Position numbers and translations under genes: made by a program. From positions 1 to 12,695 of the forward strand of contig CAYMVI010000019.1 in the NCBI GenBank assembly GCA_964394075.1: DNA of 12,695 nt. The letters are read 5' to 3'. Of the stretch, positions 5,150 through 6,409 are shown piece by piece. Each line of letters opens with the position of its first letter. Positions within the stretch are counted from its first letter, which is position 1. The stretch comes from an uncultured Eubacteriales bacterium. GTDB taxonomy: Bacteria > Bacillota > Clostridia > TANB77 > UBA1234. The notes under the pieces are model-generated. The model did not search any database. It had not been told where the DNA came from and was given only the letters and a program-made list of their open reading frames with translations.

Positions 5150-6409
5150 ATGGAATCAAAGGTCTTTAAGTTTATCTCTGCCGAGTAGGAGAGACAGGAT
5201 AAAAATATTGAATTAATTGCTAGCGAAAATTTTGTTAGCGATAATGTTCGAGCCGCAGTTGGTTCTTGTTTAACTAATAAATATTGTGAGGGATATCCAG
5301 AAAAAAGAGCCTCTGGTAACCTTGGCAGATATTACGGTGGATGTGAAAATGCCAATGATTTGGAAGAATATTGCTGTAATATGTGGCGCAAGGTGTTCCA
5401 CACTAACTATCATGTAAATGTTCAACCTCACAGCGGCTCTTCTGCCAATATGGAAGCATTTGCGGCAGTTCTTAAGCCCGGTGACACTATTTTAGCAATG
5501 AGTCTTGATAATGGCGGCCATTTAACTCATGGTAGCAAAGTTAATTTTAGCGGTAAGCTATATAACTGTGTTTTTTATGATGTAACACCAGAAGGATATA
5601 TTGATTACGAGGATATTGAAAAGCAAATCCGCTACAATCGTCCACAACTTATTCTGGCTGGCGCAAGTGCTTACTCTAGAGAGATTGATTTCAAGAGAAT
5701 TTATGAAATTATTCAAAAAGTAAAAATTGATGATGCTTTCAACAATATTGCTAATCAAAATTTTGATCACGAGGGTAATTGCTTAACTCCCGACTATGAA
5801 GACTACAATCCATATTTTATGGTAGATATGGCTCATATTGCAGGCTTAGTTGCTACTGGCCATCATCAGTCTCCTTTTGGATATGCCGATATTGTCACTA
5901 CAACCACTCATAAGACTCTCCGCGGCCCAAGAGGCGGATTGATTTTCTGTCGCCCAGATTTGGCAAAGAAGATTGACAGCGCTGTTTTCCCCGGTCATCA
6001 AGGAGGCCCTCTGATGCATGTAATCGCCGGCAAGGCAGTTTGTGCAGAAGAAGCTTGTGGTCCTGAGTATGAGAGATATATTAGCCAAGTTGTTAAAAAT
6101 GCAAGAGTAATGGCTGAGGAATTTGTAAAAATGGGTTATGATGTTGTTAGTGGAGGAACTGACAATCATATGTTCCTGTTGGACTTTTCAAAGACTCATC
6201 CAAATCTTACTGGCATGAAAGTCCAAGAGGAATTGGATAAGATTGGCATTACACTTAACAAGAATTGTGTGCCGAATGAGCAACGTAGTCCTAAGGAAAC
6301 TAGTGGTGTCCGCATTGGCACTCCAGCAATGACCACAAAGGGTTGGAGAGCAACTGATTTTGCTAATTGTGCAAGAAAAATTGACTCTGCTATTAAAGGA
6401 ATGGTGTAA
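5150..6409 (+). CDS. glyA: Serine hydroxymethyltransferase (SHMT) with a single in-frame TAG at codon 13 (nt 5186-5188): either amber read-through/recoding or a fresh nonsense mutation (pseudogene)
   Basis: SD GGAGG 5141-5145 and ATG 5150. Translation is [49 protein letters not shown]...RYYGGCE...VNVQPHSGSSANMEAF...LTHGS...VTTTTHKTLRGPRGGLI...FPGHQGGPLMHVIAGKAV...SGGTDNHMFLLD. These are canonical SHMT motifs, including those upstream of the track's ATG 5360. The segment before the TAG (KVFKFISAE) also aligns to SHMT N-termini. No in-frame alternative start exists between the TAG and the essential IELIASEN motif. Low-GC codon usage contrasts with the neighbouring MVP gene. Confidence 0.8.

Follow-up and report, generated by a model that had tools for sequence, protein, structure and literature searches.

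The window, by which is meant the whole 12,695-bp stretch of DNA analysed here and the entire contig of its NCBI record, carries all of its genes on the + strand. They encode an RNA ligase-like protein (128-1522), an 809-aa vault-like (MVP-like) protein with Vault_3 repeats and a match to the major-vault-protein shoulder (2653-5082; E = 1.2e-22), a serine hydroxymethyltransferase (SHMT), a small protein resembling Y07B of T4, a putative nicotinamidase of the isochorismatase family and a Prs-like phosphoribosyltransferase (6744-8146 for the two), YqeY (8162-8611), a Thg1-like protein (8880-9755), and NAMPT (11408-12694). The vault-like gene lies directly upstream of SHMT, an arrangement conserved in the relative L016/L026; in two others, L013 and L020, there is no vault-like gene at that position, and a 492-aa Band_7 protein is instead encoded ~4-9 kb downstream of SHMT. 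Between the vault-like stop (5082) and the SHMT ribosome-binding site, the + strand holds a perfect 14-bp hairpin (5100..5132; MFE -25.9 kcal/mol). No U-tract follows it and the terminator scan made no call there; it may play a part in processing or stability, or act as an atypical terminator.

Several of these genes suggest particular activities. The putative nicotinamidase, the Prs-like phosphoribosyltransferase, and NAMPT constitute an NAD+ salvage set, to which L020 adds NAD synthase and NADAR (14211-17515), and this set may resemble the phage pathways that rebuild NAD+, which are reported to counteract defence systems that deplete it. YqeY is of a GatB-C-terminal-like domain family linked to tRNA-Gln binding, and together with the RNA ligase and the Thg1-like protein it could form a module for tRNA repair or handling, in a phage reliant on its own tRNAs, a Gln suppressor included. 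Long ORFs of up to 686 aa also occur on the - strand (2761-4821, 11306-12571, and 125-1522), opposite the vault-like, NAMPT, and RNA-ligase genes, respectively. They are shadows of codon usage, the sense genes being nearly devoid of TTA, TCA, and CTA (1/0/1 in 810 codons, 0/0/0 in 429, and 0/0/2 in 465).

The SHMT gene itself (5150..6409, + strand) is preceded by a Shine-Dalgarno-like GGAGG (5141..5145), with its ATG at 5150 lying 4 nt downstream, and its frame runs for 420 codons to a TAA at 6407-6409. The sole interruption is a TAG at 5186..5188, which is codon 13 and, if decoded as Gln, the first Gln codon of a 419-aa protein. The segment 3′ of the TAG matches the Pfam SHMT profile (PF00464) with E = 1.9e-135, and the best PDB match of the full-length protein is 9boh_A (E = 1.1e-118), with residues 4-191 and 219-415 covered. 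An insert of ~27-30 aa (KIDDAFNNIANQNFDHEGNCLTPDYEDYNP; 5723-5812, residues 192-218) is found in the group's SHMTs, where it separates the two blocks alignable with solved SHMTs; it is absent or shorter in some close relatives (P0005-P0010). The N-terminal motifs IELIASEN (5207-5230), NKYCEGYP (5276-5299), and RYYGGCE (5327-5347) are all present, as is THKTLRGPRGG; Lys255 (5912..5914, + strand), which lies within TTTTHKTLRGPRGG, is presumably the PLP-binding lysine of the family. With both the N-terminal and the PLP-lysine motifs in place, the gene matches the SHMT family (GlyA, PF00464) over its full length, and its codons outside the TAG show no further lesion. The 12 residues 5′ of the TAG show clear homology to N-terminal sequences of the window's nearest relatives (e.g., MSKVFEFISQEQNRQ and MSKVFDFILAEEERQ) and also align to 9boh_A, from its residue 5. 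A preliminary description of this DNA had claimed an in-frame TAG at codon 13 of an otherwise complete SHMT, with conserved residues upstream of it; the former is borne out by the frame and the Pfam match, and the latter by the homology to the relatives' N-termini and the solved structure.

The product on record is considerably shorter. The NCBI entry lists the SHMT as P0004, a 342-aa protein from ATG 5381 (5381..6409, + strand), and this truncation is an artefact of calling the gene under the standard code. Downstream of the TAG, the first canonical in-frame start is not reached until TTG 5360 (codon 71), and translation from either TTG 5360 or ATG 5381 would forfeit IELIASEN, NKYCEGYP, and RYYGGCE. 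The preliminary description was thus right that no usable start after the TAG retains the N-terminal motifs, and right about the motif loss of a product started at 5360; its "ATG 5360" is in fact a TTG, and the annotated start is ATG 5381. That a shorter product from ATG 5381 (or TTG 5360) is real, and the upstream frame a mere remnant, draws on the database record, where P0004 is what is held. Against this, the missing 70-77 N-terminal residues, RYYGGCE included, align to the structured core of solved SHMTs, the N-terminal motifs are retained in full-length relatives, and no SD-like sequence was noted 5′ of 5381, while a strong one precedes ATG 5150; the idea is hardly credible. Internal initiation at a non-canonical codon (ATT 5207 or 5216, using the AGGAG within TAGGAG) was also set aside on account of its 15-nt spacing and the conserved upstream peptide, and it is the conservation of this peptide that favours ATG 5150 over either ATT. 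The 342-aa annotation is almost certainly wrong, and the true product is, as far as the sequence can tell, an intact 419-aa SHMT. A 419-aa product with Q13 is already on record as P0121, from Logan contig L019, and its gene caller must therefore have taken the TAG as Gln.

The TAG also recurs outside the deposited contig. Logan contig L019 (SRR14307647) is identical to window positions 4950-6712 at 1,763 of 1,763 bases, TAG included, and a second contig, L012 (SRR14307646), matches another 2,068 bases of the window exactly. L019 is a separate assembly, although it and the NCBI contig may share a study of origin, in which case its biology is not necessarily independent; L020 and L021, from unrelated samples, likewise have TAG at the homologous column. 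A sequencing or assembly error, one of the options raised at the outset and conceivable for a lone base-level feature of a metagenome-derived contig, is effectively excluded by these matches and has a negligible probability. Beyond the short Logan contigs L012 and L019, no part of the source genome came to light in exact DNA searches of IMG/VR, JGI metagenomes, and GTDB genomes, in exact-protein look-ups of the RNA ligase and P0004, or in megablast against INPHARED.

TAG codons in related SHMT genes

The closest relatives of the window were found on metagenome contigs from ENA and Logan, 40-120 kb long, with gene content and order as in the window. Four lineages were compared, namely the window, L013/L014/L015, L016/L017/L018, and L020/L021, and the TAG-bearing relatives are each present in 2-3 independent assemblies. 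SHMT protein identity among the four lineages is 82-87% (84-85% for the three related lineages against the window), and they are about equidistant from one another, with dS of 1.0-1.6. Across the group, dN/dS for SHMT is 0.06-0.11, a range that indicates strong purifying selection on the gene.

Over the same seven codons near the 5′ end, the window reads TCT GCC GAG TAG GAG AGA CAG, L020 reads ACT TAG GAG TAG GAG CGT CAG, L013 reads TCT CAA GAG CAG AAT CGT TAG, and L016 reads CTT GCA GAA GAA GAG CGC CAA. The window's TAG column is TAG in L020/L021, CAG in L013, and GAA (Glu) in L016, and in other close relatives it holds E, Q, N, K, or R; because this column is so variable, Gln at codon 13 of the window is an assignment by extension. 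A second TAG of L020 lies two codons upstream of the shared column, where L013 has CAA. The TAG of L013/L014/L015 occupies the Gln of an ERQ motif, and both the remaining three lineages and all close SHMT relatives compared have Gln there. Judged from the alignment, TAG and CAA or CAG interchange at homologous N-terminal columns, and all four SHMT TAGs, from three lineages, fall at codons 10-15.

These comparisons bear upon the simplest rival explanation, i.e., a recent nonsense mutation (CAG, GAG, or AAG to TAG) that has made the SHMT a fresh pseudogene in a phage of standard code. The TAG is one substitution away from the Gln, Glu, and Lys codons of relatives at that column, the window has a single in-frame TAG and no suppressor tRNA, and a phage could dispense with SHMT as an accessory gene. 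On the other hand, another lineage, at a dS of ~1.25, shows TAG in the identical column, two further TAGs of relatives lie within 3 codons of it, all of these genes being under strong purifying selection, TAG terminators are absent from the window, and the remainder of its SHMT gene is without lesion. With three TAG columns in six codons under such selection, three separate pseudogenes are impossible. Moreover, the three relatives with at least 30 kb of sequence all use TAG as a sense codon, and one of them has two CUA tRNAs (see below). A nonsense allele is considered very unlikely.

More distant relatives from IMG/VR and JGI (L001-L011 and L028-L045; SHMT identity 39-66%) served as an outgroup and have sense codons, for Tyr or Leu, at the column; no TAG in SHMT and no CUA tRNA were found within the stretches of them that were examined. 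In a tblastn search with the SHMT, the best identity in INPHARED was 50%, with no annotated complete relative there; the best in IMG/VR was 66%, and the lineage appears to be uncatalogued. In L038-L041 of the distant set, SHMT consists of two exons, coding for residues 3-123 and 124-418 and ~800 bp apart, with the break just before the HLTHGS motif (in L039, at 8788-9195 and 10001-10819), and the intervening DNA has group I intron matches of 26.4 and 23.5 bits, below the Rfam gathering score of 50.

Use of TAG across the group, and suppressor tRNAs in a relative

The use of TAG in the group was examined at large. At the four loci, 113 called genes end in TAA (83) or TGA (30) and never in TAG, and they contain 14 in-frame TAGs. 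Contigs of the relatives were then extended outward by exact look-up of translations made with TAG as Q, every one of which was present in the protein collection, and this added ~43 genes and a further 18 in-frame TAGs. For the four lineages combined, all 156 called genes (155 with a split call merged) end in TAA or TGA, and there are 32 in-frame TAGs. The merged case is an apparent TAG stop in L026 (17433-18131) that runs in frame into the next called gene; a single 493-aa orthologue in L020 matches both ends and shows this to be one 1,025-codon gene with an internal TAG. In the window, 17 of 17 genes end in TAA or TGA, a count that is weak by itself because distant SHMT-bearing relatives, in which the genetic code is not established, rarely use TAG as a stop either (15 of 370 ORFs). 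By frame, TAG occurs once in frame within the window's genes, versus 26 and 24 times in the other two frames.

The residues opposite the in-frame TAGs point to Gln. The lysin of L013 carries three TAGs, one of them at a column (GWIQFEICE) where 120 of 120 homologs have Gln and the other two at E/Q and E/K columns, and a TAG in the L020 RNA ligase is matched by Gln in 3 of 3 orthologs. Overall, Gln was the commonest partner of TAG in orthologs (9 of 15), in a tally restricted to called genes; an all-frames BLAST was too noisy, with non-coding frames of similar DNA also aligning. When TAG is treated as sense, the greedy-ORF coding density rises from 0.82 to 0.89 in L013, from 0.81 to 0.88 in L020, from 0.84 to 0.91 in L022, and from 0.54 to 0.72 in L046, a gain of 0.06-0.19 among relatives, as compared with 0.879 to 0.898 in the window. 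L016/L026, the most syntenic relative and the one with GAA at the window's TAG column, has a single in-frame TAG in ~30 genes, and recoding is therefore sparse in the group; a lineage of the group could in principle have lost it.

This usage has a bearing on records of the group, which need translation table 15. The 1,025-codon gene noted above encodes a GDSL-lipase (tail-fibre-like) protein (L026 15057-18131, - strand) and is split into products of 232 and 746 aa, and members of the lysin cluster in JGI/ENA have 135 and 218 aa, the lengths expected from cuts at in-frame TAGs 136 and 219 (matched by length). Cluster members P0308, P0312, and P0320 are listed together with L026 15057-18131 (- strand) as standard-code splits or probable cuts. 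In the window, a predicted functional SHMT is recorded as a 342-aa fragment.

A possible means of decoding was found on the 120-kb contig bearing L013, which has ~30 tRNA genes upstream of the SHMT block, two of them with a CUA anticodon according to ARAGORN. SUP1 (L023 16826-16916, - strand; also in L046 at ~13.7 kb) is 91 nt long and scores 50 bits against the Rfam tRNA model, with U1-A72, G2-C71, G3-C70, G73, and a CCA encoded in the gene. In acceptor stem and D-arm it is nearly identical to the tRNA-Gln(UUG) of the same genome, and by this resemblance it is clearly a paralogue of the phage's own tRNA-Gln. An extra 18-nt hairpin (AUAUCCUCUGAAGAGGUU) in its variable region gives SUP1 a class-II-like shape that is unusual for tRNA-Gln. 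SUP2 (L046 6996-7066) is of normal length and scores 41 bits in Rfam; it has an unpaired 1-72 position, G73, and CCA, and its identity is less clear than that of SUP1. Identities were judged by acceptor stem, D-arm, discriminator, and invariant-Gln columns, global pairwise identity being a poor classifier. The window contains no tRNA and no Rfam family in its 12,695 bp, no CUA tRNA was found in the portions read of the L016 and L020 genomes, and the ~50 kb examined of the L013 contig revealed no gene for a release factor or for GlnRS. Rfam likewise gave no theta or HDV-like ribozyme adjoining the suppressor tRNAs.

Decoding of the TAG as some other amino acid, such as pyrrolysine, Glu, Lys, Tyr, or Leu, was weighed against this evidence. 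ARAGORN gives both CUA tRNAs the label "Pyl", the column varies among relatives of the window (with Tyr or Leu in distant relatives), SUP1 has its atypical 18-nt extra arm, and the identity of SUP2 is less clear; moreover, some phage CUA suppressors have been predicted as Trp, Ile, or Tyr isotypes in a published survey (PMC10879173). The label was discounted, as "Pyl" is merely ARAGORN's default name for CUA, and pyl genes are absent among the called genes. Against the rival also stand the TAGs at two Gln positions that are invariant among the homologs compared (ERQ of SHMT and WIQFE of the lysin), the prevalence of Gln among ortholog partners, and the match of SUP1 to the same genome's tRNA-Gln(UUG) in acceptor stem and D-arm. 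It is very unlikely that TAG specifies anything else.

The preferred reading is that the TAG of the window is a Gln codon in a phage recoded from TAG to Gln (code 15), and given that its closest relatives have reassigned TAG, one of them with matching suppressor tRNAs, this is very probably correct. The preliminary description had offered amber read-through or suppression, with TAG read as Gln, as one option, and had suggested a scan for CUA-anticodon tRNAs and for in-frame TAGs in other conserved genes. When these scans were run on close relatives, two CUA tRNAs turned up in a relative with 84% SHMT identity and in-frame TAGs in other conserved genes, the lysin among them, with no true TAG terminator, and the option is supported. 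The competition of a phage tRNA-Gln(CUA) with host release factor 1 (RF1) is the published mechanism for code-15 phages (10.1101/2021.08.26.457843; PMC9523058; PMC10607447).

Applied to the window, that mechanism would run as follows. The contig would be a fragment of a large tailed phage (relatives' contigs reach 120 kb), and SHMT translation would begin at ATG 5150. A tRNA-Gln(CUA) encoded by the phage, its charging presumably left to host machinery, would compete with host RF1 at codon 13 and insert Gln, yielding the intact 419-aa enzyme. Without this tRNA, translation would stop after 12 residues, and the TAG would therefore make SHMT synthesis dependent on the phage's own suppressor. We infer that the window's own genome carries such a suppressor, as observed in a relative; some recoded phages are without one (PMC10607447). 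A timing or gating role for the SHMT TAG may likewise be envisaged.

Placement of TAG within genes

The SHMT TAGs raise the possibility that TAG is not placed at random. Position was tested on TAG-containing genes, a small sample that includes three orthologous SHMTs: TAGs fall within the first 15 codons in 5 of 27 (permutation P = 0.002), and, in a post hoc comparison, 8 of 16 genes have TAG as their first Gln codon, as against 2.8 expected (P = 0.002, or P = 0.005 with two of the SHMTs dropped). In a hold-out on unseen sequence, both of the two new TAG-containing genes had TAG as their first Gln codon (p ~0.05), and the combined figure is 10 of 18 genes versus 3.2 expected (P = 2e-4). The pattern is drawn from L013, L020, L022, L023, L026, and L046, together with the window's TAG at 5186-5188. 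There is no mention of a positional bias within genes in the preprint of Borges et al. (10.1101/2021.08.26.457843).

It may be, and this is offered as a tentative proposal, that TAG at the first Gln codon acts as a selected, 5′-proximal translational gate, beyond lysis and structural genes also in auxiliary metabolic genes (SHMT, RNA ligase, radical-SAM, and ThiF). In the absence of the phage suppressor tRNA, the ribosome would then halt after about a dozen codons and release only a harmless short peptide, and the codon-13 TAG of the window, along with the cluster of SHMT TAGs at codons 10-15 in three lineages, would reflect selection as opposed to drift. Neutrally, the pattern could also arise if slow or leaky codons were less strongly selected against near the 5′ ends of genes. 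The possible placement rule is testable at scale on existing genomes of recoded phages, and recoded codons in auxiliary metabolic genes bear on the model in which recoding acts as a timer of late gene expression.

Comparison with known recoded phages

The classical amber suppressor tRNA-Gln, supE of E. coli, has an anticodon changed to CUA and reads UAG as Gln against RF1. The present suppressor differs from supE in that it is phage-encoded, is part of a systematic code change, and, in the case of SUP1, has an additional 18-nt arm in its variable region.

Closer parallels are found among gut phages, where stop-codon recoding to Gln is already established and the present lineage is a further case. 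Code 15 is used by crAss-like phages, Lak megaphages, Agate, Sapphire, and others (Borges et al., bioRxiv 10.1101/2021.08.26.457843), and Gln at TAG has been validated by proteomics in crAss-like phages (PMC9523058). The present group resembles them in its in-frame TAGs at Gln-aligned positions, in the avoidance of TAG as a stop, in phage-encoded CUA suppressor tRNAs (on the L013 contig), in the recoding of a fraction of genes that includes lysis genes (three TAGs in the L013 lysin), and in having genes truncated or split by standard-code pipelines. It differs in that it has no close counterpart in INPHARED (SHMT ≤50%) or IMG/VR (≤66%), in the sparseness of its recoding (32 TAGs in ~155 genes), and in the occurrence of TAGs in non-structural genes as well (SHMT, RNA ligase, radical-SAM, and ThiF). 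The group adds to the known TAG-to-Gln recoders a lineage of large gut-metagenome phages whose gene set includes SHMT, a vault-like protein, and genes for NAD+ salvage and tRNA repair.

Finally, phAss-1 and the proposed Phassvirus are gut phages of ~136 kb with 28-36 tRNA genes, among them 2-3 tRNA-SUP-CTA genes predicted to carry Gln, and with TAG in ~28% of their ORFs (PMC10607447). They have no dedicated aminoacyl-tRNA synthetase, their recoded genes are mostly virion genes, and the recoding pattern of orthologs varies between species (PMC10607447). There is no mention of SHMT in that report (PMC10607447), and the present clade has no close relative in INPHARED. What they have in common is a large set of tRNAs, CUA suppressors among them, and a recoding of orthologs that differs from one lineage to the next.
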